DNA of 63,990 bases, the filler included, from Thermoplasmatota archaeon (GTDB taxonomy: Archaea; Thermoplasmatota; E2; JACPAO01; JAHFTW01): NCBI GenBank assembly GCA_041623215.1. It is 7 parts of 7 records of this genome, joined end to end, with 100 filler letters (N's around TTAATTAATTAA, not from the genome) between each part and the next. Parts side by side here need not be neighbours in the genome. Positions count along the whole stretch, not along the records: positions 30,509 to 39,980 come from JBFJXH010000066.1; 6 more parts are not named here. One strand, written 5' to 3'. Within the stretch, counting starts at the first letter, position 1. Every line of letters begins with the position of its first letter. The position numbers and the translations under genes were made by a program. Of the stretch, positions 10,237 through 58,249 are shown piece after piece. A model generated the notes under the pieces. It saw only the letters and a program-made list of their open reading frames with translations. It was not told the DNA's origin and searched no databases.

Positions 10237-10336
10237 NNNNNNNNNNNNNNNNNNNNNNNNNNNNNNNNNNNNNNNNNNNNTTAATTAATTAANNNNNNNN
10301 NNNNNNNNNNNNNNNNNNNNNNNNNNNNNNNNNNNN
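10237..10336. other. Artificial contig linker
   Basis: N-run/TTAATTAATTAA/N-run, 100 nt; stops in all frames. Confidence 0.98.
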
Positions 10337-20330: not shown

Positions 20331-20430
20331 NNNNNNNNNNNNNNNNNNNNNNNNNNNNNNNNNNNNNNNNNNNNTTAATTAATTAANNNNNNNNNNNNNN
20401 NNNNNNNNNNNNNNNNNNNNNNNNNNNNNN
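20331..20430. other. Artificial contig linker
   Basis: N-run/TTAATTAATTAA/N-run. Confidence 0.98.
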
Positions 20431-23400
20431 AGGTTAGCCGGGCCGGCCGTGAATCCGGCTGTAGCGCTGCGGTAGACATTGTAGTGGTCGACGCCGACGT
20501 TGTCGGTGGCGGCGTTCCAGATTAGGTCAATGGCGTCCGGTCCGGTAGCCGTCGCCTGTAAGCCGGTGGCTTGCGACGGGGCTTCGGTGTCGGGCCCATC
20601 GCCGACGGTAAAGGTCACGCTAACTGGGCCATCGTTGAGGGCAAACCCGCTGCCGTCGTCAAACCAGTGTTCAGCGGTGGCGGTCCATACACCGTCAGAA
20701 AGCGTGCCAGCCGGGTTGAGGGTCCAGGTGCCAGCTGCGGCGTTCAGGACCGCATTCCCGTTGACGGATGCACCGGCAGGGCCAGCCAAGTTAACCCGGA
20801 CCTCATCGGTTCCGGGGTTGACGGGGCCGCCGCCATTACTGGTGCTGATGGTGCCGACGTCGGGAACGCGGTCGTCGGCTACTAGGCCGCCAACAGAGCA
20901 CGGCCGGCCGGTCATGGCGTTAGCGTAGACGTCGAACGGCGCACTGGCGGCGGTCGCGAGTTCGCTTGCGGGGTATTCGAGGTGGAGCTCGCCGCTAGCA
21001 AAGTCATACGCGGCGCTGGCCGTGGCTATGTATTCTCCCTGTGCACCAACAGCGTAGTTGTAGATGGTAACCTCGCCGTCGCTGTAGCAGACACCGATGC
21101 GTTCGTCGTTGATGTAGAAGTTGTACTCAACGAGGTCCTCTTGTTCGGCCGAGCTCAGCGTCAAATCGGCGACCGTGAGGTCAAGGACGATGTCGCCACC
21201 GGCCGTGTACGTTGCATCAAGGCTCAGCAGGTCCGTGAAGGGCGTTGCGCCATCACCTGCGGGGTCCGTCGTGCTGGCTCGCGCATCGCGGCCAAGCAGT
21301 CGGCGACCATCTTGTTGCAGGGACAAGTCCATGTCGCGGTCGCTGCCACCGAGGTTGTCGTCACCGTCGATGTCCCAGAGAATGAAACCATCATCTTGGA
21401 ACATGTCGCTGTCCATTTGGTCAACGAGTTGGAACATCTGCTGGATACCGATGTAGTCCACGTAGCCGTAGTTGGATCCGCCACCTTGGACCGAATCGAG
21501 GGCGCACCAGTAGGCTTCTTCGAGCGTGATGACGCCGTCCGGGTCATGGTGGTTCGGGTCGCTGACGGGCCAATCGTCTTGGTTGTCGCCGCTGCCAGAC
21601 AGGAGCGGGTTGGCCAGGCCGGATTCGGGCACGAACGGTCCAAAGCCATCGGCGGCGCCCTTGAAGGTGCACTCGTTGAACATGTGGTCGTAGGTGACCG
21701 CGGGGTTGCCAAAGCACTCGGTAATCCAAGTGCAGCCGACCACGAGGGCGCGGTTTTCTCCTACCACGTTGGCCGAGTCTACCTCGGTCGTCGTGGTGCC
21801 GGGGAACCAGAAGGGCGAATCGCCAAAGCCGCCGCAGAAGGAACAATCGACGAGAATGCCCGCTTCAATGTCGACGCCTTCGTAGGCTGCTTCTGCGTTG
21901 TCCAGAGCGGCGGTAATGGTGTCACCGAAGTCCTTGTCGTGGACACAAGCTTCCTGCAAGGCCATGCAACTGCCCGTGGCGTGGTCGCCGGGGATGGAGG
22001 GGCTGTAGAAGCCGTGGCTGGAGTGCATGATGAAGACACGCGCAGGAGCCCCACCGTTGGCTTCGTTAGCAGCCGCTTGCAGCATGGCTGCTTCGAGGCT
22101 GGGGCCAAACGTGTTGAGTTCGGCAGGACCCTCATAGATACTGCCGCCTTGCTTGTATTCGTCGTCGAGTTGATCGTAGTGCGCAGGGTCACTTTGCCGG
22201 CAAATGTCACCATTTTCATTGAAGAAGTGAATGTTGCTGGTCGGCAGGCCCAACGAGTCGCGAGCGTGGTTGTTGATCTTGTTCGCGATGAGGATATCCC
22301 CATGGCCCAAGTCGTCGTCGCACCAGACGTCGTTGAGGTTCATCAAGAAGAAGTAGTGGGTGTTGGCAAAGTTGCCAGTGCCGCCACTGCCTCCACCTCC
22401 GGGGGAGAACTGACCGTCAATTGAGGTATCACCAGACACTTGCACGGCGCCATCCGTCGGGTTGGTAATCGCCAGCGGCGTTGGGCTGGTGCCCGCTTGG
22501 GGCGTGGCGAGGACCTCGGGCGCAAGGGTTTCCCCAGCACTGTTGTAGGCAGCCACTTCGAAGGCATACGTGACACCGTTCGTCAAGCCGGTGACCGCAT
22601 AGTTGGTGCTCGTGAGCGTGGCCTCAAGGACGTTGTCGACGTAGACCTTGTAGCCAAGAAGCTCGCCGCCGTTGTTAGCGGGGGCACCCCAGGTGAGGGC
22701 CACTTGGCCATCGCCGGCGTTTGCGGTTACGCTTTGCGGCGCGGAGGGTGCGACCACTTGCGGGTCGAGGTTCAGGGTAATCTGTTCGAGAACTGGGTCA
22801 ACGTTATCTTGGTTGGCGCGGCGGAGGTAGAGGAACGCCCAGTTCGTATCCGCAGGTACCGTGCCACTCTTCTCGGCGGGACTCTGGCCGAGGTTGCGGC
22901 CCGTGAAGTCGGTCGGCCAGTCCAGCCAGTCGTTGAAGAAGTAGATGTCTGCGGGTTCGCCGAATTGCAGTTCTACATTGTAGCCGGCGCCGGCGTAGCC
23001 AGTAATGTCGAACCAGTAGCCGTCGACCCCGTTGGCGACCTCCTTGTCGCTGAAGGAGGCGCTCGAAAATAGGCCGGTGCCATCATTGAGTGGCTGACCG
23101 GCGGGCGTGCTGGGCGTGCCTTGGCAGAGGCTGCAGGCAGCCGCGATGGACCCCTGAAGCGCGACGGCGCGTAGGCCGCCACGACTACCCGAGGTAAGGG
23201 GATGGCCGTAGTAATTGAGACCCGCGGGTTGACCGCTTTCTGTATGTCCGGCAATGCCGCTAATGGCAATTTCTCCGCTCAGTGGGAAGTCACCGGCTGG
23301 GTCGTTGGCCGGTTCCTGGATGTCAATCATGGCGCCACCGGTCGAACCTCCAGAGACCGCGATGGTTTTGCTGTCGGTAGCCAGCAGCGTATCGTCAGCG

Positions 23401-26400
23401 TCGAACCACTTGGCCGTCAGGGTCACGGTTGTGCCAGCCTTGTCAGATAGGTCAATCTGCGTGCTCCAAGCATCCGTGGGACTGTTGGCGTCGGTCGCCG
23501 TCGGGTCCGTACCGCGCGGCACCGTCTCTGCGTCAACGTAGACTTCAACGCGTTCGCCGGCAGGTGCGGTGCCGACGCTTACGGCGGCACTTGACTGGGC
23601 GCTGTCCTGGCCGTCGTCAACCGTCAGCGTGACACTGTGACTACCTGCGCTTCCAAACGTCACGGATGTGTCGCACTGATTGGCATCACCGAAGCTGGCG
23701 CCGGCTGCGCTCCACGAGCACGTGTAGGTGCCGCTGCCGCCGCTGCCGGAACCGCTGATGGGGATGGCTGCGTTGACGAGGCCGCTGTAAGGCCCACCCG
23801 CGTCAGCGCTCAGGGGCGTGGGGGCATTACCCAACGTGTAGTCGCGGGCAGTTGCGGGGTCCGTTGCGTCGAAAATTGCGGTGGGTCCCCAGGCGACACT
23901 GGCAAGGTCATTGCCAACGCGCGCGCCTGTAGAGCCCGACATGCGGCTCACGATTGTTCCATCTACGGCTGTGTTGCCATTGCGTGTTACGCTGGAACAA
24001 TCGGTGACCGACGTGCCAGTCGCGTCGACATTCAAGGCGTCGCGAAGGATTGTCCACGAGATTTGGCTGCTGGCGACATTGAAGGAACTGGTGGTTGCGT
24101 CGACGTAGGGGTCCTCGGTCGAGCCGCACGAGTCGTTGTTTGTGGACGCCTTGGCGGAGCCGGAGAATGTAGCACCCGTCACGGCGCTGGTTGCTTGCAA
24201 GCCGTAGCAAACGCGGTCACTGAACCCGGCGTGAGCACTAGTACCGCTGTAGGTGATTGCGTTCGAGTTGACGCAGAATCCAGCTTGATAGACAATCGCC
24301 GAGGCGGGGGTGCTCGGAGGCATGCCACTTAGATCGTCAATTTGCATGACCACGTCAAAGGAATCGGCGTCTTCGTTGGCAATCCAGATTTTCGTGATGT
24401 CAAGGAAAGGTGCTCGGGCATCGCCGGATGGGTCATTGACCTCCGGGTCACTCGATGAGCCCTGCGTGGTGGCAACGTTGGAGAGAAGCTTCTTGCCGCT
24501 GGGCTGCCAGGCGGCTTTCAGTTCGACGCCACCAGCATCGGGGGCCCGGTCGTCCATCACCAAGCCGCCTGCTTGGCCTTCGCCGAAGCGTGCTTCGATG
24601 TGGCCGGTGCACGGGCAATCAGCGCCGTTAGCAAGTAGGTAGGCACGTTCGATGCTCAGGCGAATCTCGCCGGCGGCGGCATCCCACTCGGCGGTGCCGG
24701 TTGCTGCTTGATTGTTGGTTACGTCCCACAGGGACGGTCCGGTGCCTAGGATATAGGACTCAATGTTGAGGCCATTGACGACCACGGCGTAAAGGAAGGG
24801 CGAGTCGCCCGCGCCAACGGGGTGGACCTGCTCAACCTTGATGGTGACATCAAGGCTGTCAGCGTCTACGGCAGTGTCAACCCATTGAATCTCAGTGAAG
24901 GGCGTCGATGCGTCATCATTGGCGTCGCCGATGGAGTGTCCGGCATCGTCGTCAATGGCGCCTGGGAGGCCCGGCGGTGTTGCCGGGTTAAGGACGTTGA
25001 TCCAGTACAGTCCGCCTTGGCGGTTGTCGTGCAGCCAGAGTTGTTCGGAGCCAACGTCGAATTCCATGCCGACGATGTAGTAGCCAGACCAATCGGCCGG
25101 GATTGTGAAGTCGCGGTGGTCATACCGGAAGTTGGAGCCGTCGGTGGCTCCAACCATGTCCACTGGACCGTAAACCACGTCGCCGTCGGGTGTGAAGACG
25201 GTCATTTCAACAGGAGTGGCGACGCCAATCGTGGGTCCAGTACTAATCGTCGTGCGGGAGCTGAAGCTAATGGGTTCGCCAGCGAGGTGAATCGCAGCGC
25301 GGTCGTCTAGCCCAGCGCCGGTGGCGGTTGCCAGGTTGTCCGTTACGCCGATTTGCCCTCCGTTGTAGGTCCAGACGGTTGCGGTGATTCGACCGTCGGG
25401 GACAGGTAGGCTGTCAGCGCGCGCGTCAATGGTGAGCGCGGCGGTGCCGTCGGCACCATCATTGTCAGTTACGGTCAAGGTTGCCGTGTAGCTGCCAACG
25501 GCACTGTAGGTGTGGGCCACTTGTTCGCTGCCACTGTAGGCACCGGCGGCCGGCGTGCTGCCGTCGCCGAAGTCAAGGCTCCACGATTGAACCGTGCCAT
25601 CGCTGTCGGACCCATCAACGGTGAATGTGACCGTCACGGGGGCTTCGCCGCCGGATACATCACTTTGGAGGCTAGCCGACGGAGGGTCGTTGGTGACCAC
25701 ATGGCCGTCGCGGTTTACCTGGCCGCTGACGGTGACGGGGGCTTCGCTGCTGGCGCTGCCCTCAGGTTGCTCAATGGTGACGACGGGGTCGCCTTCGGGT
25801 CCGCCGTACTTCATTTCGTAGGCGGTCATGACGGCCTGATAGGCATCGACGAGACCACGACCACGCTTGTAGTCCCGGCAGATGTAGTTGTCCGGGTCGC
25901 CGCCGCGGTCAACAATCGCCTGGAAGTCAGGGAACTTGGTGAGTACAGTCGGGTCGCCCGCCTTCGCCTTCGCGGCGTCCGCCGGCGTAACAGTACAGGA
26001 ATCTAAGTCAGTGAAGCCGTCGGCCGCGTTGTTGTCCACGGCGTCGCCCCACATGGTGGTGCCCGTGATGCCACGGGCGCCAATGCCATCGCTCCAAGGC
26101 GTGGCGGTCTCAATGAGGATTTTTTCAATTTGGGCCGGCGTCAGGTCGGGGTTGGCCTGTTGCATCAAGGCAACAACGCCAGCGACGTGCGGGGACGCCA
26201 TGCTGGTGCCCGTGGCACCGCCGTAGAACGGCGGGTCCCAGAGCGCGGGGATTCCGGAGGCAGGATTGGCGGTGCTGGCGATGCTAGTGCCGGGGGCGGC
26301 AACGTCAGGCCAGCGGTGGATGAAGTCGCCAGTGGAGCCGGAGCCCGAGCAGCCGTCGCTGCTGCCCGAGTTGATGGCGGCGTTGCGGCTGGAGGATTGG

Positions 26401-27473
26401 CCATCGTTGTAGTTGGCCACACTCAGGACGCCCGGGGTCGGGTTACTGGCCAAGGTGCTGGTCCAAGTCGGACCGCCGCGGTAGTTGCTGGCCGCCCATA
26501 CGACGACGACGCCAGCGTCAACGAGGCGGTCGGTGATGGCGAATAGACTGCCGGAGGCCGGGTTGGCGCCGCATTCGTTTCCGCTGGAGAAGCTCCAGGA
26601 GTTGTTGATGACTGAGATATTGTACACGTCGCGGTTGGTGTACATCCAATCCAACGCGATGTCGGTGAAGAAAAGACCCACTTCGGCGACGCCGAGGCCT
26701 CCGCCGACCAGCTTGGCGCCGGGCGCCACACCCACGTAGGGGCCGGTGGTGAATACTGGGTCGAGGCCGTTGCGGGAGGCAAAGCCGTTACCGGCGGCGA
26801 TGCCGGCAACGTGCGTGCCGTGACCGACGGTTTGGTCACAGTGGGGGTTGTCGGAGGCGTCGCGGCCGGCGGCACTTAGCAAGCCAGGGATATTGACGCA
26901 AGCAAGGACCTTGGCGTCCATGCCGGCGGCTTCTGTTCCGGCATTGCTGGCGGGGGCGTACAGGAGGTCAGGGTGGAGAGCGTAAATCCCTGAGTCCACA
27001 ACGCCGATGGTGACGCCGGTGCCGTCCACAACGCTGCCATCTGGCAACGTGATTTGCGGTCGTTCGGCGGAACTTCCGCCGGGCCACCACTTGTCGCCCC
27101 AGACATCGCGAGCGTACGTAACAGCGGTCGCGTCGTCCATGTCCATCTGAATGGGACGGTCCCATTCCAGGTAGTCGAATCCAACGTCTTGTTCGCGCGC
27201 CGCAATGTCGGCTGCGGCACCACGGACGCCGATGGCTGGAATGGCGTTGAATCGGTACACCGGCTCCAGGCCCCATGCCGCGAACACTTCGTCGCTCGGG
27301 ATATCACTCCAGTCATCGTAGGCGAGAATTGCCTGGGTGTCTCCTTCGGGCATGAAGCTGTCGGCGAGCGCCGTGCCGAAGAACGGTACGGGGCTTGCTA
27401 GGGCGGCTACAATCAGGACGGCCCAGCTGATACGTCGGGCGTTACGGGCGTTACGTGTGTTCATCCAAGACAT
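20431..27473 (-). CDS. Giant secreted S8 subtilase with PKD, FN3 and caspase-like domains (C-terminus truncated)
   Basis: Signal peptide; catalytic triad GVVDSG, HGTHVAG, GTSMASPHVAG; PKD (WSLDFGDG); FN3 (VTGLTNGVTYAFEVAAYN; WNAATDNVGVDHYNVYR). Confidence 0.92.
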
Positions 27474-30408: not shown

Positions 30409-30508
30409 NNNNNNNNNNNNNNNNNNNNNNNNNNNNNNNNNNNNNNNNNNNNTTAATTAATTAANNNNNNNNNNNNNNNNNNNNNNNNNNNNNNNNNNNN
30501 NNNNNNNN
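30409..30508. other. Artificial contig linker
   Basis: N-run/TTAATTAATTAA/N-run. Confidence 0.98.
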
Positions 30509-30509
30509 G

Positions 30510-30848
30510 TTTCTCGCGGTATTCGCCCTAGCCATCTTGGTTGGGCCCACTTTCTTGGAACATGGCCGGGAAGCATTCCGGCATTGGGGTCGTTTCATTG
30601 CCACGAGTGAAATCCTCGTCATGGTAGGAACGTTGGCCCAGATTGGTCTGTTGACGATTGCCCTCATGAGTTACCCTGAGATGAGTCTCTTCGAACGCGT
30701 TGGCGTGGGAACCTTTGGCGCCATGGGCCTGTATGGCGGTGCTCGCGAAGTTTACTTCGGCTTGCGCCCCAATGACGAGCAGGCTGCCCGTGACGCAAGC
30801 CACCGGCCCGGTCACGTGCGGCGCCGTCGCCGCCACGCTCACCCGTAA
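30510..30848 (+). CDS. Membrane protein (5'-truncated)
   Basis: Frame open from the contig edge; three hydrophobic helices. Confidence 0.5.
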   Translation, partial: FLAVFALAILVGPTFLEHGREAFRHWGRFIATSEILVMVGTLAQIGLLTIALMSYPEMSLFERVGVGTFGAMGLYGGAREVYFGLRPNDEQAARDASHRPGHVRRRRRHAHP

Positions 30849-30950
30849 CCGGCACCAGCTGCTGGAGGCCCGTGGGTTGGACCGGGGCATCGTCGCGCCG
30901 AGACGCATACCGGCCCGGTTGCCGCAACCATTTTTTCGCCCCCAGCCGTA

Positions 30951-31142
30951 ATGCCAAGCATGGATGTGCTAAGGGAAGTGGACGCCTTCTGTGCCTCATG
31001 CCAAGACGTGACCCGCCATGTTGTAGTCCGCGATGACCCGGCTAGCTGCTCCTGCCAGCGATGCAATGCACGGCAAGTCTTGGTTGTGCCATTGGCACCA
31101 GCAAGCGGTGGCGATGGCCACGGCGCTGCGGGCGCGGCGTGA
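30951..31142 (+). CDS. Small zinc-ribbon protein
   Basis: CASC...H...CQRC in a 63-aa ORF. Confidence 0.6.
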   Translation: MPSMDVLREVDAFCASCQDVTRHVVVRDDPASCSCQRCNARQVLVVPLAPASGGDGHGAAGAA

Positions 31143-31201
31143 TACCGTCGTAGTTGCGTCCGTTCCCCGCCGCCCAGGGCGTCACCTGGATGAGCCTGGC
31201 G

Positions 31202-31747
31202 TCACACGGTGCTGTGGAAGCGCCACACCTCGTTCCCATCGTGGGTGACGTTCCACCCAATCGCCTGCACCGCCTCCAACGTCACCGAGCGGTCGGGCCA
31301 CTGAATGGTCAGCGCCTCGGCCGGAGCGACTAGGAGTGCCGCTAGCTGTAACGATCCTCCATCGAAGGAGCGGACGATGGTCCATTCGTCACCGCCGAGC
31401 TTCGCCGGTGCGCTCGTGGCAGTCTGAAAGGGCATCGCTAGACCGCTGGCAAGAACGAGTTGTGCACGCTTCACGGGGCTCGAGGACGTGCCGCTACCCC
31501 CGCTGGAGCCGGATGAGCCGCCCCCCGTTCCTGATGAGCTGCTGCCTCCGCTGCCGCTGCCGCCGCTGCTGTCGGGCGCCGGTTCATCAGCCGCCCCCTC
31601 GTCGCCAGGTGCCGGTTCCGGTGACGGCGCTGGTTCGTCGGACGATACCTCGTCGTCTGACATCGCATCATCGGTCCCGTCGCTATCCGAGCCAAAGCAA
31701 CCGGCCGTGACGAGCGCGATGGAGATGGCGAACAGGAGCAGCCGCAT
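31202..31747 (-). CDS. Lipoprotein with acidic/Gly-Ser linker and small C-terminal beta domain
   Basis: Lipobox-like LVTAGC, low-complexity D/E/P/G/S linker; starts 1 nt after the stop of the Hcp-like gene. Confidence 0.75.
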   Translation of the reverse strand: MRLLLFAISIALVTAGCFGSDSDGTDDAMSDDEVSSDEPAPSPEPAPGDEGAADEPAPDSSGGSGSGGSSSSGTGGGSSGSSGGSGTSSSPVKRAQLVLASGLAMPFQTATSAPAKLGGDEWTIVRSFDGGSLQLAALLVAPAEALTIQWPDRSVTLEAVQAIGWNVTHDGNEVWRFHSTV

Positions 31748-31748
31748 G

Positions 31749-32225
31749 TCACTCCACCTCCGCTACGAGAATTACGTCATCAATGGCCGTCATAGCATCA
31801 TCTCCGACCGATTGGTACTCAACCTTGATTTCGGCAAACGCGAGCGTAATGTGCTCGCGAGGTGTGGTGTCGTCGACAACTTCGTAGCTGGTAATGATGA
31901 TGTGCTGCATGTCTAGCACGATGTCGCCTTGGCCGCGCAGGCCACGGGCGGCTAGTTCGAGGCCGGCAATGGGCCCGCCAGCCGCTACTGCGTCGGCTAG
32001 GACGGGACTGGTATCATCCATCCATTTGACGATGGTTGCACTGCCGTGTAGGATGTCGCCTGTTCGCTCAATGCCCCAACTCCACGACAAGACCTTCGTG
32101 GGCTCATTGGGGTCGATGACGGCCAAAGGGCCCGCGTCCAATCCTTCCCACTGCATTGAAGGGGCAGCCGACACTCCGGCTGCTGCGACCAAAAGTACTA
32201 TCGCCACAAGGAACGGCCCGCGCAT
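31749..32225 (-). CDS. Hcp-like (type VI secretion tube family) protein with N-terminal signal peptide
   Basis: VLSWSWG...TIVKWMDDTSPVLADA...IIITSY...PREHITLAFAEIKVEY follows the Hcp consensus (VLSWSWG...TKxxDxxSPxL...ISS...PxExhsLxFxKIxxxY). Signal peptide MRGPFLVAIVLLVAAAGVSA. Confidence 0.75.
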   Translation of the reverse strand: MRGPFLVAIVLLVAAAGVSAAPSMQWEGLDAGPLAVIDPNEPTKVLSWSWGIERTGDILHGSATIVKWMDDTSPVLADAVAAGGPIAGLELAARGLRGQGDIVLDMQHIIITSYEVVDDTTPREHITLAFAEIKVEYQSVGDDAMTAIDDVILVAEVE

Positions 32226-32364
32226 GCTTTTAGCTCGCCCAATCGCCCTCAAGACCATTTCCAAGAATCCCCTTGGCCCCATGGGGAGGAAGGGCACATC
32301 GGGCGTTGCCGGCACAAGGCCGCTACGCCGTCATGGTGAAGTTGGGCCTAGGTATCATTGACCC

Positions 32365-33471
32365 ATGGCACCTGACATCGGGGCATTGGCTCTGGGCTTC
32401 ATTGAGCAATATGGGTTGCTGGCGATGTTCATTTTGCTCGTCCTTGACAGCGCCCTGTTACTACCCGTGTTTCCGGGCGAAATTGTGCTCATCATGGCTG
32501 TCGCCACCTATGGGACAGATCCCAGCGGCCTCCTGATGCTGATTGTCCTTGCCACCACGGCAGCCCTCGTCGGCAGCTTGCTTCTGTACGCCGTTCTGCG
32601 AGGCGGTGGCAGGCGTCTGGTGGAGCGCTACCCGAAGTTCTTCATGATGCCGAGGAAACGACGCGAAAAGATGGAGGCGCTATTCCAAAAGAAGAGCGGC
32701 CAGAGCCTCGTCATGTTTCTGCGCATCATTCCCCTGACGAGGATTATCGTTACCATTCCAGCGGGGCTTGCACGCATGCCGGCGCTACGGTTCATTATCC
32801 TGTCCACAATTGGTTTGGCGGCTTACCACATCGCGTTCCTTTGGTTTACCTTTGAGGCGAATCGACCCGGCAGCACCATCTCGCAACAGAAGGATCAGCT
32901 TGCGCAAGCTTACGCCAGCCCCATGTATGACTACGTCACGGCAAACACCGCCGTCACCGGCGCCGGTCTGCTGCTGTTTGGAGCCTTCCTGTCCATGCGC
33001 GCATCAGTCAAGATGCGCACGGCAGAGCCCGATGAATCCACCGGTAGTCTCCTGGGCTCGCTAACGATTGCCATCCTCATGGCGGGTGGCCTGCTGGTGG
33101 CCGCGCTTGCTTACCTGGAGCCAGAAACCGCCTACCGGGGCGCCGAAATGGGAGGCCTTGACATTCATCAAATTGCAGGGGCCATCAACTACGAACCGGT
33201 GCAGTTGCTTTGGACGACGGCGGCAGTGGCGGTAAGTCTCGGCATGTTTCTGGAAATTCTCAACCGGGATGCAGCGCAACGGCGGCGACGCTTCCTCAAG
33301 AAATGGCATGCCAAGGAGGCCGAGCGACGAGCCGCAGAAGCTGCCAGTGAATCTCCTGACGGACCGGCTAGCCCTAGCGACAACCAAGCGGCGGCGCCGG
33401 ACGCGCCACTCGCGGCGACCGACGTATCCGATCCCGCGCCACGCGCCTCCAGTGCGTCGTCGGAAAGCTAG
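32365..33471 (+). CDS. DedA/VTT (SNARE-associated) family membrane protein with C-terminal extension
   Basis: PVFPGEIVL, GSLLLY..LRGGG, FLRIIPLTR, PAGLARM motifs. Confidence 0.85.
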   Translation: MAPDIGALALGFIEQYGLLAMFILLVLDSALLLPVFPGEIVLIMAVATYGTDPSGLLMLIVLATTAALVGSLLLYAVLRGGGRRLVERYPKFFMMPRKRREKMEALFQKKSGQSLVMFLRIIPLTRIIVTIPAGLARMPALRFIILSTIGLAAYHIAFLWFTFEANRPGSTISQQKDQLAQAYASPMYDYVTANTAVTGAGLLLFGAFLSMRASVKMRTAEPDESTGSLLGSLTIAILMAGGLLVAALAYLEPETAYRGAEMGGLDIHQIAGAINYEPVQLLWTTAAVAVSLGMFLEILNRDAAQRRRRFLKKWHAKEAERRAAEAASESPDGPASPSDNQAAAPDAPLAATDVSDPAPRASSASSES

Positions 33472-33474
33472 GCC

Positions 33475-34194
33475 ATGTGCAACTTCGTCGATCAATTTGG
33501 CGAAATCCATCACCATGTGCTGAAGCATGGAGTGGATGTATCTCGGGTAGACGCGGAGGTCGCCTTTCCACGTCGTTGCCGACCGCACGACCGCATCAGC
33601 CTCCTGCACACCGCCCCACCGGCACCAGGCAAGGCCCCCACCCTCGTGCTGGAGGACGGCAATTGGGGCCTTCACTTGCCCGGATTTCGGGGCCTAACGA
33701 CGAACGCGCGGGATGACCGTTTGGCGACCAGCCCCCTGTGGCAAACCATGTGGGGTCAAGCCGGACACCATGTGGTAATTCCCATTAGCCATGGCTATGA
33801 ATTTACGAAGCGCACGGGCGAACGGGTCTGGAGCTGCATCCAGCGGCGCGATGGAGACCCATGGCTGGTCGCGGGCCTTGGGCGCGAGCAGGATGGTCGC
33901 CATCGCCGTGAATGGCATGTCAGCATGGTGACCACGGACGCCGGTTCCGTTTTCGAGCCGATTCATGACACGCCTCGGGAAGTGGTTTGCTTACGCGACT
34001 GGGACGAGGCGCTAACGTGGCTCGACGCTGACCGCGGCGAGTGCCAGAAACTCATCCGTGCGGCAACGCCCGATGTGCTAGCCACCCATCGGGTCAGTGA
34101 CGATGTGCTGAGGGAAGGGTTTCCCCCCGGCGCCTGGCCAAACAGGTACCAGCCGTCGTCCGGCCCCCAGCAAGGCCTCGACGCCTTCGGGTAG
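33475..34194 (+). CDS. SOS response-associated peptidase (SRAP/HMCES/YedK family)
   Basis: N-terminal Met-Cys, NWG, NAR, GYEF, AGL, MVTT, PIHD-P motifs. Confidence 0.8.
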   Translation: MCNFVDQFGEIHHHVLKHGVDVSRVDAEVAFPRRCRPHDRISLLHTAPPAPGKAPTLVLEDGNWGLHLPGFRGLTTNARDDRLATSPLWQTMWGQAGHHVVIPISHGYEFTKRTGERVWSCIQRRDGDPWLVAGLGREQDGRHRREWHVSMVTTDAGSVFEPIHDTPREVVCLRDWDEALTWLDADRGECQKLIRAATPDVLATHRVSDDVLREGFPPGAWPNRYQPSSGPQQGLDAFG

Positions 34195-34272
34195 TGGCAG
34201 GCAATTGCTCGCAACCCGTCCCCATCATGGCACGTTGGCCGTCTCGTGGCAGACGGCGCGTTTGCCGCAGCC

Positions 34273-35673
34273 TCAGTCCGCTGTTTGTGTTTCCATGGCT
34301 GCACCGGACGCTTGCAGGACGACGCTCAAGGGATTGCCCAAGATTTCGTCACCGCCCAAGCGCGGGGTATTTTGCTCAATTTCGGAGAGCACCATGTAGC
34401 CACGGCCATCAGGTCCGAGCGCCGCGCCTTGCACGTGGCGAGACGCATGGGGGCCCTTGTCGACGGCGAGGCTTGCATTGCGAATTTCGGGTTGGCCATC
34501 GATGCCGATGTGAACATGGCCAAGGTACCAGTCGGTGCCGGCATCGTGGCGAATTCCCCAGTTCACAAGGGCGCCTTCGCCCCACTTGTTGCCGTCTAGG
34601 TAAATGCTTGAAACAGGCTCGTCAAAGGTGAAGTTGCTGACCGCGAAGTTGGCACCATCGTCGCTACTCACGGCGAGTTGGAAGCCGCCCTTGGCGTATT
34701 GGCCGTTGTTCATGGCGCCCACAAACAAGGCCCCCGTTGCATCAAACACGGCTTGGCCGTAATGTCCGATTTGACTGGCCGACTTGTGCGTGTTTTCGAA
34801 GACTGGACGCTCCTCCACGCTCATGACATCGGCCACGTTGCCCGTCACCACCACGAACGTTCCGGCTTGGTCCTGGGGCACGGCAAAGAAACCGTCGTCT
34901 CGGACGTCTGGAATGCCGGGAATGAAGCCGCCGCTGGAGGCGCATAAATTCCACGTTGGACCCGTGAGGGGGTTACCGATGCCGACGTAATCGGATGGCG
35001 GCACCTCCATTGCGCCGACCTGCACCGGTCCTCCGCCAGCATTGTTGACCATCAAAAGCGTGCCATTGGCATAGGCAGCCCAGGGCCGGTCGTTGATACT
35101 GAGGCTGAAGCAGGGTCGCCCGGCACGAGTCTGCATCGCTTGCACCTCATCGTACGCGTTCGGGTTGTGGTAGCAATGCCGTGCACCGTCGTCACACCAA
35201 CCATTGACGGGGAACGTGACGAGCGTGATGTCCACGCCCCACAATTGACCATCGTCGCCAGCGACAACGAAAATTTCGTCGCTTGGCGGTGGGGTCGCGC
35301 CATGCACCGGCTCTGGCGTCTCAAGCGAGTCTAGGAAGGGCAATTGAGCCCACGAAGTGCCGTTGTCCTTGCTGAAGAACACCGGGGCGCCCGTGGTGTC
35401 TACGCCGGCGGTGTGGGCGGTCACATAGATGACGCCCGTATCGGAAACTTCCATGGTTGGCTCATAGAGGCCGATGCCGAAGTGGACCGCAGCGTCCACG
35501 ACGACTTCTTGGAAGGCCATGGTGTTTGTGATGGAGACCGTGACGCCGTCGGCGCCATCATCGCTCACCGCGTCCAGGGGCATAGCATTCGAATCTGGGG
35601 TGTCGGAAAGGCACCCGGTGAGCGTCAAGGCGCCAAGGGTCAAGGCCGCAAGCCACGGCATGCCACGTTGCAT
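34273..35673 (-). CDS. Lipoprotein with BNR/sialidase-like propeller
   Basis: LTGC lipobox; EPTMEV, SKDNGTSW, DRPW, SSDDGANF; same family as 792..2615. Confidence 0.75.
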   Translation of the reverse strand: MQRGMPWLAALTLGALTLTGCLSDTPDSNAMPLDAVSDDGADGVTVSITNTMAFQEVVVDAAVHFGIGLYEPTMEVSDTGVIYVTAHTAGVDTTGAPVFFSKDNGTSWAQLPFLDSLETPEPVHGATPPPSDEIFVVAGDDGQLWGVDITLVTFPVNGWCDDGARHCYHNPNAYDEVQAMQTRAGRPCFSLSINDRPWAAYANGTLLMVNNAGGGPVQVGAMEVPPSDYVGIGNPLTGPTWNLCASSGGFIPGIPDVRDDGFFAVPQDQAGTFVVVTGNVADVMSVEERPVFENTHKSASQIGHYGQAVFDATGALFVGAMNNGQYAKGGFQLAVSSDDGANFAVSNFTFDEPVSSIYLDGNKWGEGALVNWGIRHDAGTDWYLGHVHIGIDGQPEIRNASLAVDKGPHASRHVQGAALGPDGRGYMVLSEIEQNTPRLGGDEILGNPLSVVLQASGAAMETQTAD

Positions 35674-35787
35674 GCGGCGGCCAATGGAGCCACGGCATTA
35701 TGTTTTCGACGGCGTCTGATGGAAGAAACGACCTCCCAATCCTAGACTCGACCCCAGCCCCTTTTTGCTACCCGGTGATGGCCCCTC

Positions 35788-36972
35788 ATGGTCGATGATG
35801 CATGGCGCCAAGTGGGCCTCGTCATCGATGCCGGTAGCGGTGTATTATTCCTGGCCTTGGCTGCGTTTGTTGGCCTCAAGCGGCCACGAACGCGAACCGG
35901 GGCATGGTTTGCTTTCTTCGCTGCATCACTGGGGTTGCGAGCCACGCTTGACAACGGCTGGCGTCTGGGCTGGTTTGGCAACAACCTCGTGACCGGCCAA
36001 ATGCTGGTTCTCATCGCTACCGCCGTGATGGCCATGGTAGCCATCTTGGGCCTGGGCCGTTCGCTGGGTGTGCGCATGGCTTGGGCTCCGTTGGCGCTGG
36101 GCGGCGTTGCCGGCGCCTCGTTCGGCCTGGCGTTGTCCCTGGGCCGCGAGTGGCCAGGGGCAGGTGCCAGCGCGACGGCGGCGGCCTTCACAGTCGGCTT
36201 GTGGGTGCTGGTCGTCATCGTGACACGGGCGCCCGACATGGCTTGGCTCAACAAGCCAATGGCACCCTATGCTACAGCCTTCACGCTCGTCAATCTGACC
36301 AACTCCTTTGGTTATGTGGCCCGCCAGACGGGGCCCGAGTTACTCCTCTTCGCGCTGAACTGGATGGCGCCGGTGGTGGCCATGGTGTGGGCGTTACTGC
36401 AACTTGGAAAACACAGCCAACGGGCAGCCATCGTCATCGTCGTTGCAGCCGGTCTGGTGTCGCTGGCGTGGAACGTGATGGCCGGCGAGAATGTGAACGA
36501 CAAGGGTCTCATTGGGGCTACGCGCATCGTCGCCGTCCTCGCTGTGGGTTACGCCATTGTCCAAAACCGTGCCTTCGACTTAGATGTCAAGATTCGGCGT
36601 TCGCTACAACGCTCGGTGCTCGTCTCGTTCTTCATTGCCGCCTTTGCCGGCGCCCAGACCTTCGTCGGGGAGTACTTCACGGAATCTGGTGGGCTGTTGC
36701 CGGGCGCGCTGGCCACAACCTTACTCGTGCTCGCGATTGCCCCTTTGCAACGGCTGGCAGCCAAGGTCGGGAGTGCCGCTATGCCGAACGCGCGCCCCAT
36801 CGACGAGCGCAGCCAGGCGGACCGCGAGCGTTTGTATCGTCGTGTTAGTGAAGCGGCTTGGGAAGATGGCATCATTACGAAAAAGGAATTGACGCTGCTC
36901 GACGTTGCGCGCGAAGAGTTGGGCCTAGACCTTGGCACCACCGCTCGCATTGATTCGCAGGTGCGGGTGTGA
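35788..36972 (+). CDS. Polytopic membrane protein with C-terminal TerB-like helical domain
   Basis: About 10 TM helices, YAIVQNRAFDLDVKIRR motif, C-terminal AWEDGIITKKELTLLDVAREELGL. Confidence 0.7.
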   Translation: MVDDAWRQVGLVIDAGSGVLFLALAAFVGLKRPRTRTGAWFAFFAASLGLRATLDNGWRLGWFGNNLVTGQMLVLIATAVMAMVAILGLGRSLGVRMAWAPLALGGVAGASFGLALSLGREWPGAGASATAAAFTVGLWVLVVIVTRAPDMAWLNKPMAPYATAFTLVNLTNSFGYVARQTGPELLLFALNWMAPVVAMVWALLQLGKHSQRAAIVIVVAAGLVSLAWNVMAGENVNDKGLIGATRIVAVLAVGYAIVQNRAFDLDVKIRRSLQRSVLVSFFIAAFAGAQTFVGEYFTESGGLLPGALATTLLVLAIAPLQRLAAKVGSAAMPNARPIDERSQADRERLYRRVSEAAWEDGIITKKELTLLDVAREELGLDLGTTARIDSQVRV

Positions 36973-37046
36973 GTTTCGGCCCCGGCGTGGCGGCCCTCAA
37001 GCCTTAAGAGGAACACCTGCCACGGAGGCCTCAGGCAGCCATGCTC

Positions 37047-37125
37047 GCCGGTGTGTCGCTCTGACACCGGCTTTGACGCCCTGGACGCGGCTTTGCCGCA
37101 GCGGCGGAGTGCGACACTGTCCAGG
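37047..37125 (+). promoter_or_regulatory. Putative structured 5' leader of the DEAD-box helicase mRNA
   Basis: Stems GCCGGTGT/ACACCGGC, CCTGGAC/GTCCAGG, GCGGC/GCCGC; TATA-like CTTAAG at about 37003, roughly 130 nt upstream of the ATG. Confidence 0.45.
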
Positions 37126-37133
37126 AATTCACT

Positions 37134-38486
37134 ATGCAGTTCAACGACCTGCCCATAGCCGACGGCACGAAAGATGCCGTCGCCGCCATGGGCTATTTCG
37201 ACGCCACACCCATCCAGCGTGATGCAATCCCCCATTTGCTCAAGGGCCGGGACCTTATTGGTCGGGCCCAAACCGGCACCGGCAAGACGGCCGCCTTTGG
37301 CGTGCCCCTCATTGACAAGCTTCGCGACGTTCGTGGCGACGGCATTCGTGGCCTCGTGCTGTGCCCGACGCGCGAATTGGCCTTACAAGTAACAGAGGTG
37401 CTAACAGCCGTGGCCGCGGGCAGCCGCGTCCGCGTTGTGCCGGTGTATGGAGGCGCGGGCTTTGACAAACAAGAGAAAGGCTTGGCCCAGCGCGCTCCGC
37501 TTGTGGTGGTTGCATGTCCCGGACGCTTGCTGGACCTCATGGGTCGCGGCGTGGCGGACATTGCCACGACGGAGTTCTTCATTCTCGACGAAGCGGATCG
37601 CATGTTGGACATGGGTTTCATCCACGACATCAAGCGCATCGAAAAGGAGCTGCCCCACCACCGCCAAACGGCGCTATTCTCGGCCACGTTTGATGGCCCG
37701 ATTCGTCGCCTAGCGCATGATTTCCTACAGGACCCCGTGACGGTTGAAGTGGAAGACACCATTACAACTGACTTGGTGGATGATTATCACATCAAGGTGG
37801 AAAAGTCGCTCAAGAAGCAGCTTCTGCTTACACTCATGGCACGGGAGGAACCCTCCAAGGCCATCATCTTCACCAAGATGAAGCACCAGGCGAAGCGCCT
37901 GGCGGGCGACTTGAACAAACACGGCTGGGCCGCCGTCGCCTTACAGGGCAACATGACCCAAGGCCAGCGCGAACGCGCCATGGATGCGTTTCGCGACGGT
38001 CGGGCCCGTGTCATGGTCGCAACCGATGTTGCCGCGCGCGGCCTCGACGTTCCCGACATCAGTCACGTCATCAATTATGACTTGCCCACCGAGGTGGAAA
38101 ACTACGTCCACCGGGTTGGACGCACCGGCCGCAATGGCCAGACTGGCCGGGCCCACAGCTTCGTGCAATCGGATGAGCACGCGCACTTTCGAGACATCAA
38201 GCGCTTGGCGGGAAACATTCCGGGCGATCCGGTTGAACCTGAGTCAAATGCCGCGCGCGGTCCCGACGCTCCCCTGATTCTTGTTGCCCCCCAGCAGCAG
38301 CGACAGCCGAGTGGCTCGACTGCCCGTCGCAGTCGGCGCCGCGCCGGTAAGGCCGGCCAGGGAGGCGGTGGCCAGCAAGGCAGCCATGGCGGTCGTCAGC
38401 AAGGCGTTTCCAGCGGTAATCGCCAGGGACGTGGCGGACGACGCGGCCGTGGTGGCCGCGGGGGCGGCTACCGGTCCACAGGCTGA
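37134..38486 (+). CDS. DEAD-box RNA helicase
   Basis: Q motif TPIQ, AQTGTGKT, PTRELA, DEAD, SAT, ARGLD, HRVGRTGR; Arg/Gly-rich tail. Confidence 0.96.
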   Translation: MQFNDLPIADGTKDAVAAMGYFDATPIQRDAIPHLLKGRDLIGRAQTGTGKTAAFGVPLIDKLRDVRGDGIRGLVLCPTRELALQVTEVLTAVAAGSRVRVVPVYGGAGFDKQEKGLAQRAPLVVVACPGRLLDLMGRGVADIATTEFFILDEADRMLDMGFIHDIKRIEKELPHHRQTALFSATFDGPIRRLAHDFLQDPVTVEVEDTITTDLVDDYHIKVEKSLKKQLLLTLMAREEPSKAIIFTKMKHQAKRLAGDLNKHGWAAVALQGNMTQGQRERAMDAFRDGRARVMVATDVAARGLDVPDISHVINYDLPTEVENYVHRVGRTGRNGQTGRAHSFVQSDEHAHFRDIKRLAGNIPGDPVEPESNAARGPDAPLILVAPQQQRQPSGSTARRSRRRAGKAGQGGGGQQGSHGGRQQGVSSGNRQGRGGRRGRGGRGGGYRSTG

Positions 38487-38531
38487 CCCATCTCAGAGCG
38501 GCCGTCTGTCCAAGCCACCGTGCATTATTCC

Positions 38532-38537
38532 TTTATA
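38532..38537 (+). promoter_or_regulatory. Archaeal TATA box of the proteasome beta-alpha operon
   Basis: TTTATA 24-29 nt upstream of the ATG at 38561, consistent with a leaderless transcript. Confidence 0.7.
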
Positions 38538-38560
38538 CAAGTGCTAACTTACTCTGTCCG

Positions 38561-39175
38561 ATGACTACCACCGTGGGCCTTCGCACACCGGAAGGCATCG
38601 TCTTGGCGACGGACCGCCGCGCCACCATGGGCTACTTCGTCGCCGACAAAGACGTCGTCAAGATTGAGCCCCTTGGAGACGATGCAGCAATCACCATCGC
38701 CGGCAGCGTTGCCCAAGCACAAGCGTACGCACACAGCCTGCGCATGAACATTGACTACACCAAGGCCCGGCGAGGCTGGAGCCTTTCCCCGAATGAGCTG
38801 GCCAAATTGGCCGCTTACAACATCCAACGCGCGGGCGGCGTGTATGGCCAATTCATCCTGGCCACGCGCGACGGCACCAACACCCATCTTTGGGACGTAG
38901 GTGGCGACGGCTCACTGATTATCAAGAAGGATTACACGGTAACTGGCAGCGGAACGGGACCCGCCATCGGCGTGCTCGAATCGCAAGACTGGTCCACGAT
39001 TACCACCCTCGAAGCGGCGCGAGAAGCGGCGCGAAAGGCCATCCAGGCGAGTACGCAGCGCGACGCCGGTAGTGGCAACGGTCTGGTGGTTTACACGCTT
39101 CCCAACGAGGGCGAAGCAGAACTCAAGACCTACACGTTCAAGCAATCCGTCGAAGAAGATGAGGTGACGGCATGA
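38561..39175 (+). CDS. psmB: 20S proteasome beta-type subunit, no propeptide
   Basis: M-TTTVG; after Met removal Thr1, Asp17 and Lys33 fall at the canonical positions; AGSVA, TGSG, RDAGSG motifs present. Confidence 0.9.
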   Translation: MTTTVGLRTPEGIVLATDRRATMGYFVADKDVVKIEPLGDDAAITIAGSVAQAQAYAHSLRMNIDYTKARRGWSLSPNELAKLAAYNIQRAGGVYGQFILATRDGTNTHLWDVGGDGSLIIKKDYTVTGSGTGPAIGVLESQDWSTITTLEAAREAARKAIQASTQRDAGSGNGLVVYTLPNEGEAELKTYTFKQSVEEDEVTA

Positions 39176-39834
39176 AGCCCCACGTCGATACCACCTACCT
39201 GCACTTCGATGAATCCGGCTCCGTTCCGGCCATCAAGTACGCCCGCATTGCGCTTGCCAATGGCTTGCCCATCATTGCGGCCCACGATGGTAAGTCGGTC
39301 GCCGTCGCCACCGTCAACCGCGAAGGCAACATGCTGGCGACCGGCGCGGACAAGCTCATTCATGTCAGTCTCGACTGCGTGGTGCTGGTTACAGGCCACG
39401 GCGGCGACACCAACCAGGTCCGCCAGGTACTACGTGACTTGGCCGTGAACCACAAGTTCGTTTTTGGCTCTGAAATCAGCCCCAAAGAAATCAGCCTCGC
39501 GCTCTCGGACTACCTGCATGAGCTTGGCATGAGCTATCGGCGTCCCCTGGGCGTCGGCATCATCGTAGCTGGCTTCGACCGCCACGGAACCGAGGCCGCC
39601 ATCTACCACTGTGATGTGGATGGCAACGCCCTCGAACGCCGTGGCATTGCTCTGGGCAAGTCCGCCTCCGAAGCGGAACACGCTATCCAGCAGGGCCTCA
39701 AAGAAGGCCAAGACCTAGAGGCCATGCTCAAGGCGGCAGCCGACGCCACTATCCGTGCAATGCAGGAGTCCAGTGTTGACTTGAAGGACGCCACTTTCCG
39801 TACGGACCTGGAAGTCCTCCAGGCTCGCAACTAG
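39172..39834 (+). CDS. psmA: Divergent 20S proteasome alpha-type subunit
   Basis: F..SG....KYA..A..NG, DKL, TGHGGD, RPLGVGIIVAGFD, DVDG, ALGK align to the alpha fold; ATGA overlap with the beta gene. Confidence 0.82.
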   Translation: MKPHVDTTYLHFDESGSVPAIKYARIALANGLPIIAAHDGKSVAVATVNREGNMLATGADKLIHVSLDCVVLVTGHGGDTNQVRQVLRDLAVNHKFVFGSEISPKEISLALSDYLHELGMSYRRPLGVGIIVAGFDRHGTEAAIYHCDVDGNALERRGIALGKSASEAEHAIQQGLKEGQDLEAMLKAAADATIRAMQESSVDLKDATFRTDLEVLQARN

Positions 39835-39895
39835 ACTCTGCGTTCACCTGCGCGTTCCGGGGCCTTCATATCAGGAAGGTGCGTCGTCAATCGCG

Positions 39896-39980
39896 ATGGC
39901 GATGCAGGATGGCATCGGAAGGACCGGCTACCGCGTCATTGCGGATGTTTTCATGGCCGTAGGGCTATTGGGATTGGGCA
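39896..39980 (+). CDS. Start of a hypothetical membrane/secreted protein (truncated)
   Basis: ATG followed by a hydrophobic stretch running into the linker. Confidence 0.3.
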
Positions 39981-40080
39981 NNNNNNNNNNNNNNNNNNNN
40001 NNNNNNNNNNNNNNNNNNNNNNNNTTAATTAATTAANNNNNNNNNNNNNNNNNNNNNNNNNNNNNNNNNNNNNNNNNNNN
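39981..40080. other. Artificial contig linker
   Basis: N-run/TTAATTAATTAA/N-run. Confidence 0.98.
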
Positions 40081-42618: not shown

Positions 42619-42677
42619 GCGTCCGGCGGCCTGCCCAAGTCCGAGTCCTTAAAGGTGACTCAAGAAGTGGGTGGCCC

Positions 42678-48600: not shown

Positions 48601-49411
48601 GTGATGGCCAACTGACGGACGACGAATCCTTCACCATCCACGTGGGCGACTTCAACCAGCCGCCCGAAATGGATCCGCTTCGCGACCGCAGTGTTCGCGC
48701 CGGTCGGGAAATCTGTGAAACCTTCGTGGCCAGCGACCCCGACGGCGACCCCCTGACGTTCAACGTCACCGGAGGCAACGGAAACGTCACGCAAAACGGC
48801 AACGAAGCTACTTGGTGCTGGCAGACCGAGCGCAGTGATGCTGGCGTTCATACCATCACCGTGGTTGTTAGCGACGGCAGCGCGACCGCAACCCAGTCAT
48901 TCGATGTCCGCGTCCGCGCCGGCGGCGGTGGCGGTGGCGGGGGTGGCCGCGTGCAACCACGTGAGGTGGATGCCACCGCCGGCAACGATGGCCCCATCCG
49001 CTGGATTCGCGATGCGGGCAACAAGGACCTGTCCTTTGCGCAATGGTCCCCGGGCGGCGTCGCCGCCGTCAGCGCCGTGCTACCTGACTTGCCGCCGGGC
49101 TTCCGCGCCTTCGACTACGCCGTGTTGTTTTCAGGGGAAGAAGGCGACGTGGTGCAAGTGCATGTCGACACCAACGCCGTTGTCCTTGGCAACTTCACGC
49201 ACCTTGGTGCCCTTCGCCTCATGGATGGCTCCTGGGTTCCCGCGCAGGCCGCCTTGGCGGGCATTGTATGGGATGGCGACCAAGCGACGGTGGACATTAT
49301 GCTACCTTGTTGCGGCGTTTTCGTATTGGGTCAAGATGACCAGTCTCCACTCCTGAACGTGTGGCCGGGCGACGGCGAGGGTGGCAGCCGCACAGATTGG
49401 CGGATTGTTGA
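42678..49411 (+). CDS. Giant surface protein with roughly 15-20 tandem putative Ig/cadherin-like domains (3'-truncated)
   Basis: Signal peptide; Calx-beta-like N-terminal domain; repeats with ATDPD...GxFSWTPxE...VxEVNxxP; poly-Gly linker; TATA-like TTAAA about 27 nt upstream. Confidence 0.9.
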
Positions 49412-49511
49412 NNNNNNNNNNNNNNNNNNNNNNNNNNNNNNNNNNNNNNNNNNNNTTAATTAATTAANNNNNNNNNNNNNNNNNNNNNNNNNNNNNNNNN
49501 NNNNNNNNNNN
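49412..49511. other. Artificial contig linker
   Basis: N-run/TTAATTAATTAA/N-run. Confidence 0.98.
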
Positions 49512-58149: not shown

Positions 58150-58249
58150 NNNNNNNNNNNNNNNNNNNNNNNNNNNNNNNNNNNNNNNNNNNNTTAATTA
58201 ATTAANNNNNNNNNNNNNNNNNNNNNNNNNNNNNNNNNNNNNNNNNNNN
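58150..58249. other. Artificial contig linker
   Basis: N-run/TTAATTAATTAA/N-run. Confidence 0.98.

Follow-up and report, generated by a model that had tools for sequence, protein, structure and literature searches.

A predicted exported Hcp-family protein and its neighbouring lipoprotein gene in a Thermoplasmatota archaeon

The gene pair and its products

We analysed a 63,990-nt stretch of DNA from a marine Thermoplasmatota archaeon (GenBank assembly GCA_041623215.1), referred to below as the window, in which two adjacent genes on the minus strand encode an Hcp-like protein with a predicted Sec signal peptide (P0001) and, immediately downstream, a putative lipoprotein (P0002). Hcp, also named TssD, is the tube protein in type VI secretion systems (T6SS), where it is assembled in the cytoplasm and has no signal peptide. 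In the reading we lean towards, P0001 belongs genuinely to the Hcp family, carries a Sec-type signal, and has its gene start/stop-coupled to that of a lipobox lipoprotein. Its export is predicted, and its place of work is probably extracellular, with no type VI machine involved and with the lipoprotein as its putative membrane holder. The features of the locus are as follows.

31749-32225, minus strand: Hcp-like gene P0001, an open reading frame (ORF) of 158 amino acids (aa) plus stop (TGA at 31751-31749)
32166-32225, minus strand: predicted Sec signal peptide, residues 1-20 (MRGPFLVAIVLLVAAAGVSA), read from the sequence, with predicted cleavage after VSA (-3/-1 rule)
32154-32156, minus strand: Met24, the alternative start taken in the public gene call P0003 (135 aa, 85% of the query)
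31752-32165, minus strand: mature Hcp domain, residues 21-158 (138 residues), with strands and helix predicted by AlphaFold2 (AF2)
31755-31761, minus strand: GGAGGTG, a Shine-Dalgarno-like site 7 nt before the P0002 ATG, within the end of the Hcp gene
31202-31747, minus strand: lipoprotein partner gene P0002, an ORF of 181 aa plus stop, with its ATG at 31747
31697-31747, minus strand: signal peptide of P0002 with lipobox-like TAGC, residues 1-17 (Cys17), read from the sequence
31475-31696, minus strand: flexible linker of P0002, residues 18-91 (about 74), acidic/Pro-rich and then Gly/Ser-rich, with no secondary structure in AF2
31205-31474, minus strand: small C-terminal domain of P0002, residues 92-181 (about 90), predicted beta-rich with low confidence

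By profile and by fold, P0001 is a true member of the Hcp domain family. Its residues 44-137 match positions 21-129 of the 129-position Pfam profile T6SS_HCP (PF05638) with 40.8 bits (cut-off 23.5, E 3.2e-10), and all the motifs on which a previous reading from the sequence alone (the sequence-only reading) had based its Hcp assignment are present, namely VLSWSWG (residues 45-51), TIVKWMDDTSPVL (64-76), IIITSY (109-114), and PREHITLAFAEIKVEY (122-137); the assignment is confirmed by the profile and by the Hcp fold found with AF2 and Foldseek. Two relatives score higher against the same profile, a paralogue on contig C2 of the same genome (P0004, 77.1 bits) and an orthologue from G004, a genome of another genus in the same family (P0005, 81.4 bits). 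A profile of four archaeal sequences had Pseudomonas aeruginosa Hcp1 (1Y12) as its best match (E 2.3e-29) and matched 18 distinct solved sequences in all, every one an Hcp or an Hcp fusion. The AF2 model of P0001, made with a 66-sequence alignment, reached a predicted local distance difference test score (pLDDT) of 79.8 and a predicted template modelling score (pTM) of 0.72, with strands at 23-27, 43-68, and 85-138, a helix at 73-82, and pLDDT of 80-96 over most of residues 41-140. Searched with Foldseek against the PDB, this model gave 63 matches at E<=0.001, and those listed are Hcp structures or Hcp fusions, the top ones being 8yun, 4tv4, 3v4h, 3eaa, and 1y12 (E 8e-10 to 1e-8, TM up to 0.77-0.79) and the best 8yun (E 8e-10, TMt 0.77).

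Solved Hcps form rings, and in the T6SS Hcp also acts as a receptor or chaperone of small substrates. The tubes of phage tails and of extracellular contractile injection systems (eCIS) have a distantly related fold and are likewise assembled in the cytoplasm, with a sheath and a baseplate. P0001 shares with Hcp1/TssD of the P. aeruginosa H1-T6SS (PA0085, 1Y12) the PF05638 family, the fold (Foldseek E 1e-8, TM 0.70), an equal domain length, and the lack of fused domains. Unlike Hcp1, it has a Sec signal before the first strand and a shorter beta-hairpin without the Gly-rich loop, it comes from a single-membrane archaeal host whose genome has no detected T6SS genes, and its gene is followed by a lipoprotein gene rather than by effectors or VgrG. 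PMC3482391 deals with Hcp1 as part of the T6SS. P0001 also differs from phage and eCIS tubes in that Phage_T4_gp19 (PF06841) gave no match to it at E up to 10, and PF06841, PF04984, and PF04965 all stay below cut-off in both its genome (G000) and G004.

The stop codon of P0001 and the start of P0002 are separated by one spacer base. P0002 begins with MRLLLFAISIALVTAGC, which is lipobox-like; its site, V-T-A-G-C, has Thr at -3, where the classical lipobox [LVI][ASTVI][GAS]C has L, V, or I. It fits a looser lipobox pattern, as do 86 of 1,745 crude genes of the genome (about 4.9%). Of the earlier description of the partner as a lipoprotein gene 1 nt after the Hcp gene, encoding a long linker and a small beta domain, the ORF, the spacer, the lipobox-like start, and the linker all stand, and the beta fold is predicted with low confidence only. 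P0002 has no Pfam, NCBIfam, or PHROG family, and an ESM Atlas search with its C-terminal domain gave no usable match. Among the 38 genomes of the order, this domain found nothing better than E 0.0014 beyond its own locus and did not recover the C2 paralogue. Word-index searches with P0001, the C-terminal domain of P0002, and that of the C2 partner returned the queries themselves only. The possibility that P0002 is itself a hidden Hcp was discarded, since hhalign of the partner against Hcp alignments matched signal peptides alone, with a probability of 1.2%. A complex prediction combining Hcp residues 22-158 (66-row alignment) with P0002 residues 88-181 (3-row alignment) scored 0.01 against a mark of 0.32, which, with the partner fold uncertain, gives no answer either way.

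The N-terminus of P0001, with MRGPFLVAIVLLVAAAGVSA before the predicted cut and AP after it, has a charged start, a hydrophobic core of 14 residues, and a V-x-A site. Because residue 8 of Hcp1 aligns to position 22 of P0001 in the profile alignment, the signal segment is an addition before a complete Hcp domain. The same layout is seen in the C2 paralogue (MRVLMLCIVAFALVLPQVSG before the cut and AAYMKIGDIKGE after it) and in the G004 orthologue (MSWRVIAVAILLVPVVSG and AAYIKFDGLDGE), in which Met1 is the sole ATG in the printed residues ahead of the Hcp strand. When ATG-initiated stop-free 23-mers were taken from all six frames of the genome, its true signals included, 51 of 41,609 (0.12%) were as signal-like as the N-terminus of P0001. 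The Sec-type signal claimed at first sight is supported by this base rate and by the segment recurring in P0004, in P0005, and in the majority of related proteins, and the signal peptide of P0001 is very probably translated.

A rival explanation places the true start at Met24 or later, leaves the upstream hydrophobic codons untranslated, and takes the product for a cytoplasmic protein with no present function, the decaying remains of a bacterial hcp gene that was acquired horizontally. In its favour, the hydrophobic segment is left out of the public gene call P0003, which begins at Met24, and a Met is present at the equivalent position of the C2 copy too. The Pfam match does not reach residues 24-43 of P0001. 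Model confidence is low in this region, residues 30-40 included, and the G-E...H that the family keeps almost without exception is missing from it. With 26-32% identity to its nearest relatives and an end branch of 2.49 changes per column in the tree described below, P0001 is the most diverged protein of its clade and could be decaying. The distribution is patchy as well: of the 38 genomes in the order, 4 have an Hcp match, which in one case is just a weak N-terminal match, and the same-genus genome G001 has none. The full signal-peptide layout, its rarity, and its recurrence in both relatives argue against such a remnant, as do the intact ORF, a fold core predicted at pLDDT above 90, and the duplication and retention of the pair. 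Three DNA runs, all from one study of marine metagenomes, contain the stretch wholly or in part, two of them with most of its sampled words, and no RNA run is listed with it; inside the Hcp gene, the one variant seen in two further runs of that study is 31920 G>A, which by codon count is synonymous at Ile102. We consider a remnant starting at Met24 improbable. The concern that the start might lie downstream of the hydrophobic segment was thus justified as far as the public call goes, but the layout of the relatives, the rarity of such segments, and the clade of P0001 argue against Met24.

Recurrence of the pair and the search for a contractile machine

A lipobox protein is encoded directly downstream of the Hcp gene in all three loci found in the archaeal family to which the host belongs (family f1), which bears out the earlier view of the two genes as a pair. 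On contig C2 of the same genome, the signal-bearing Hcp gene is followed by a gene for a 160-aa lipoprotein (LIGC, acidic/Pro linker, small C-terminal domain) with a 4-nt overlap (ATGA), and in G004 a 155-aa signal-bearing Hcp is followed by a 115-aa lipoprotein (LAGC) with a 1-nt overlap. Lipobox, linker, and small domain are kept in all three partners. Because about 4.9% of genes are of the lipobox type, finding a lipoprotein in this position three times reflects conservation and not chance; the three pairs surely share a single ancestral pair and do not count as separate events. No other genes are common to the three loci: the neighbours are a DedA/VTT protein and SRAP in the window, pyruvate dehydrogenase E1 and an unnamed 413-aa ORF on C2, and unnamed ORFs in G004. 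What is specific here is the conserved, duplicated pair of Hcp and lipoprotein genes in one archaeal family.

The window and C2 partners are related over their whole length (E 3e-7). The C-terminal parts of the partners were compared as pairs, window with C2 and G004 with C2. The first comparison gave E 1e-4 for the C-terminal domains alone, with 11 of 20 residues identical in the GGDEWTIVRSFDGGSLQLAA region, around W-I-R-FD-SLQLA; in the second, the G004 partner gave no alignment with the C2 partner. The lipoprotein partner is best read as lineage-specific.

The G004 partner (L005 1908-2252) contains GHELTHVVQ, an HExxH stretch, and has a weak match to eCIS_core/DUF4157 (PF13699; E 0.061, 12 residues only). 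Neither of the other two partners, those of the window and C2, has this motif.

The sequence-only reading had recognised no sheath, VgrG, or baseplate gene on the contig. That view spanned just 0.7 kb on one side of the pair and 7.7 kb on the other, and, because the contig (C66, window positions 30509-39980) is only 9,472 bp long and the window consists of joined contigs, the remark that no T6SS lay nearby carried little weight. It has since been strengthened by a genome-wide search in which VipA (PF05591), VipB (PF05943), Phage_sheath_1 (PF04984), GPW_gp25 (PF04965), Phage_GPD (PF05954), Phage_T4_gp19 (PF06841), PAAR (PF05488), and TssF (PF05947) all stayed below cut-off in G000. The same eight families were below cut-off in G004, which is 90% complete. 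G000 is a metagenome-assembled genome (MAG) of 1.94 Mb in 223 contigs and 88% complete, so a machine is to be called not found, rather than absent.

These figures bear on a second rival, in which P0001 forms the tube of a contractile injection system and the remaining genes of that system either sit on DNA that was not assembled or binned or have diverged beyond the reach of the profiles used. The incompleteness and fragmentation of G000 make it possible that a machine is encoded on unassembled DNA, and a related genome from outside the family, G036, encodes a phage-type sheath (63.5 bits), on a contig other than that of its Hcp gene. Eight core families are negative in two genomes, however, housekeeping genes flank the three loci, and a Sec signal does not go together with assembly within a sheath in the cytoplasm, as established for the T6SS. 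A contractile tube is in our view very improbable, the least favoured of the explanations weighed here.

Exported Hcp proteins in other genomes and a possible working of the pair

A profile search of 1.84 billion proteins gave 13,479 matches, the best 150 of which were examined; 146 of these remain besides our own genes and query rows. Single-domain proteins account for 63 of these 146, and in 52 of them the N-terminus is extended by 15 residues or more that include a hydrophobic core following K/R, a share that is biased upward by the signal-peptide columns included in the query profile. Eight of the remaining 11 begin like a canonical Hcp. The other 83 best matches are multi-domain chains, with six domains in 37, five in 12, four in 8, three in 6, two in 19, and seven in 1; 24 of these chains begin with a Planctomycete-type LEDRxLLS and 14 with a plain hydrophobic signal.

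Within the phylum, 13 of 401 sampled Thermoplasmatota genomes have Hcp matches, and an N-terminal hydrophobic segment is present in all 11 single-domain loci outside the family of the window. In a tree of 105 Hcp domains, P0001, the C2 paralogue P0004, the G004 protein P0005, and P0119 form a clade (SH-aLRT 95), which sits within a 7-row clade whose every row is signal-bearing. Thermoplasmatota Hcps are otherwise scattered over several places in the tree, and most deep branches are unsupported.

P0001 resembles the signal-bearing single-domain Hcps of bacteria, the candidate phyla radiation (CPR), and archaea, for example those at L039 (Peribacteria) and L048 (Thermoproteota), in having the hydrophobic segment directly or closely before the Hcp strand. 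The spacer between the two is 2-6 residues in the three proteins of family f1 and 12-60 residues in most other Thermoplasmatota forms. Unlike the signal-bearing single-domain Hcps examined elsewhere, the f1 proteins have a downstream lipoprotein gene. With the single-chain multi-Hcp surface proteins, which have six domains in many bacteria and are the top matches of the archaeal profile, P0001 shares the domain family, predicted export, and the lack of T6SS genes beside it in the genomes examined. Those chains presumably make a ring in one polypeptide; P0001, unlike them, is a single domain of which six copies would be needed, and has a separate lipoprotein.

Several other Thermoplasmatota genomes encode unusual Hcp-domain proteins. 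G062 (contig C18), G073 (C112), and G083 (C36), with loci including L154, L158, and L159, have 7-9 Hcp-domain matches per genome, on one contig each, and the multi-Hcp matches listed with a frame length each lie within a single open frame of 1,261-1,515 codons. In G006 (L006, 1036-1656 and 1895-2386, both on the minus strand), two tandem genes encode a signal peptide followed by AAVF[LV]KLPGVEGEV, which corresponds to the first Hcp strand only, and, after that, acidic repeats in which DSFFDI[FA] motifs occur; of the Pfam Hcp profile, positions 1-26 alone are matched. The Hcp of G036 (P0032; L004, 1423-2124, minus strand; 234 aa, Pfam 133 bits) has a hydrophobic N-terminus and a coiled-coil-like spacer of about 50 residues, and no lipoprotein gene lies downstream. 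Such N-termini raise the possibility that other Thermoplasmatota Hcps carry a membrane anchor and linker in cis where family f1 supplies them from a separate gene; we keep this as no more than a possibility because several of these N-termini have good signal-peptidase sites and may be cleaved.

A lipoprotein gene after the Hcp gene was found at none of the 27 signal-bearing metagenome loci (80 loci fetched), at none of the 11 other Thermoplasmatota loci, and at neither L039 nor L048. Two lipobox-pattern matches in the metagenome loci were discounted, being ORFs of 42 and 66 aa at a distance of 127-220 nt. Instead, a second signal-bearing Hcp-like gene lies directly downstream in 8 of the 27 metagenome loci (L067, L076, L079, L105, L120, L121, L140, and L142), an arrangement which suggests mixed rings or paralogue pairs.

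These loci speak for a third rival, in which the exported Hcp is released as a free extracellular or S-layer-associated ring and the lipoprotein is a cargo or ligand, a folding accessory, or a mere co-transcribed neighbour, and tethers nothing. Exported Hcps occur elsewhere with no lipoprotein gene, at times with a second Hcp gene in its place; the partners evolve fast, and those of G004 and C2 do not align; and the C-terminal domain of P0002, at about 90 aa, is small enough for the lumen of an Hcp ring, by analogy with T6SS effectors. On the other hand, start and stop codons abut or overlap in all three loci and no other neighbours are shared, the lipobox, linker, and small domain are preserved in every partner, and a single-membrane cell has no compartment in which to hold a soluble ring. 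We regard a free ring as unlikely, though a good deal less so than a remnant or a contractile tube.

To return to the reading in which the lipoprotein holds the Hcp at the membrane, the pair could work in the following way. Both genes would be transcribed on one mRNA and translated in a coupled manner, given the 1-nt spacer and the GGAGGTG 7 nt before the second ATG. Both products would cross the membrane via Sec, the Hcp signal being cut after VSA, and lipid modification of Cys17 would anchor P0002 to the external side of the one membrane. The Hcp domain left after cleavage, 138 residues long, may then assemble into rings, as solved Hcps are rings and 37 of the 146 related best matches are chains of exactly six domains. 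The C-terminal domain of the partner, on its linker of about 74 residues, would keep the ring at the cell surface; retention is proposed because, with no outer membrane, a free soluble ring would diffuse away. There, we guess by analogy with the receptor or chaperone part played by Hcp in the T6SS, the ring might be a platform that binds or holds further proteins exported by the cell. Nothing was found in support of the conduit that had also been envisaged. The exported, machine-independent Hcp is well supported by comparison; we infer the tether and the rings.

Several observations weigh against this reading, in addition to those on the start codon, divergence, and genome completeness given above. 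All three family members fall below the cut-off (58.9) of the NCBIfam TssD model TIGR03344, with 21.4 bits for P0001, 46.3 for P0004, and 38.3 for P0005, and P0001 departs from a working TssD in three defining respects: it scores too low against the curated model, no machine was found with it, and it has a predicted signal. The fold of P0002 was not predicted with confidence, its AF2 model from three sequences having a pLDDT of 50.6 and strands within residues 120-160 at pLDDT below 60, and no relatives of P0002 were found in a word search of 5.8 billion proteins. The failure of the G004 and C2 partners to align belongs here too, as does the upward bias of the signal-bearing share. Because no lipoprotein gene was seen at the examined loci outside the family, a lipoprotein partner is no general requirement of exported Hcps.

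In its fullest form, which we put forward only tentatively, the proposal is of a minimal two-gene surface module: Sec-exported Hcp rings would be leashed by a dedicated lipoprotein, giving the tube fold of phage tails and the T6SS an extracellular job with no sheath, spike, or baseplate. Such a module would have been duplicated and diverged in one genome, and its second-gene anchor would be one local solution among many undescribed exported Hcps, including the six-domain chains.

Hcp is known solely as the tube and substrate receptor of a contractile machine assembled in the cytoplasm. A Sec-exported Hcp with no detected machine would imply a second, uncharacterised role of the fold in the envelope or outside the cell; a full-text literature search, whose coverage did not extend to subscription journals, found no paper on a Sec-exported Hcp. 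The pair may offer a small handle on this role, with two short genes, a candidate binding partner, and three occurrences for comparison. It also bears on annotation. Automatic annotation labels such genes 'type VI secretion system effector/tube', and the signal is trimmed in one public call or more; both conceal the class and can wrongly imply a T6SS in archaea.

Surroundings of the pair in the window

The window is made of seven separate contigs of one MAG (C63, C64, C65, C66, C67, C70, and C110), joined by N's, and gene order across the six junctions is therefore meaningless.

10237-10336, 20331-20430, 30409-30508, 39981-40080, 49412-49511, 58150-58249: contig junctions, each a 12-base filler flanked by two 44-N runs

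The archaeal origin stated for the host agrees with the content of the window, which encodes proteasome alpha and beta subunits, a Cbf5-type pseudouridine synthase (DKCLD+TruB+PUA), and DUF373, and the closest public relative of the Hcp-like protein is also from a Thermoplasmatota archaeon (L020).

On C66, a 466-aa lipobox protein with an Asp-box-like SKDNGTSW and no Pfam family is encoded at 34273-35673 on the minus strand. Its homologue in the same-genus genome G001 is 55% identical and has no common neighbours; this gene is the sole match between C66 and G001, so the comparison is uninformative on an insertion of the pair. Both C66 and G036 encode a BNR-type lipoprotein close to the Hcp gene; these proteins are not homologous, and the parallel was dropped.

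Elsewhere in the window, three ORFs of 2,300-2,500 codons (12687-20210 and 20379-27473 on the minus strand, 42531-49463 on the plus strand), some of which reach contig ends, probably encode giant surface proteins. Neighbouring the giant ORFs is an 831-aa ORF (40123-42618) with TSP3, RCC1, He_PIG, and Rib domains.

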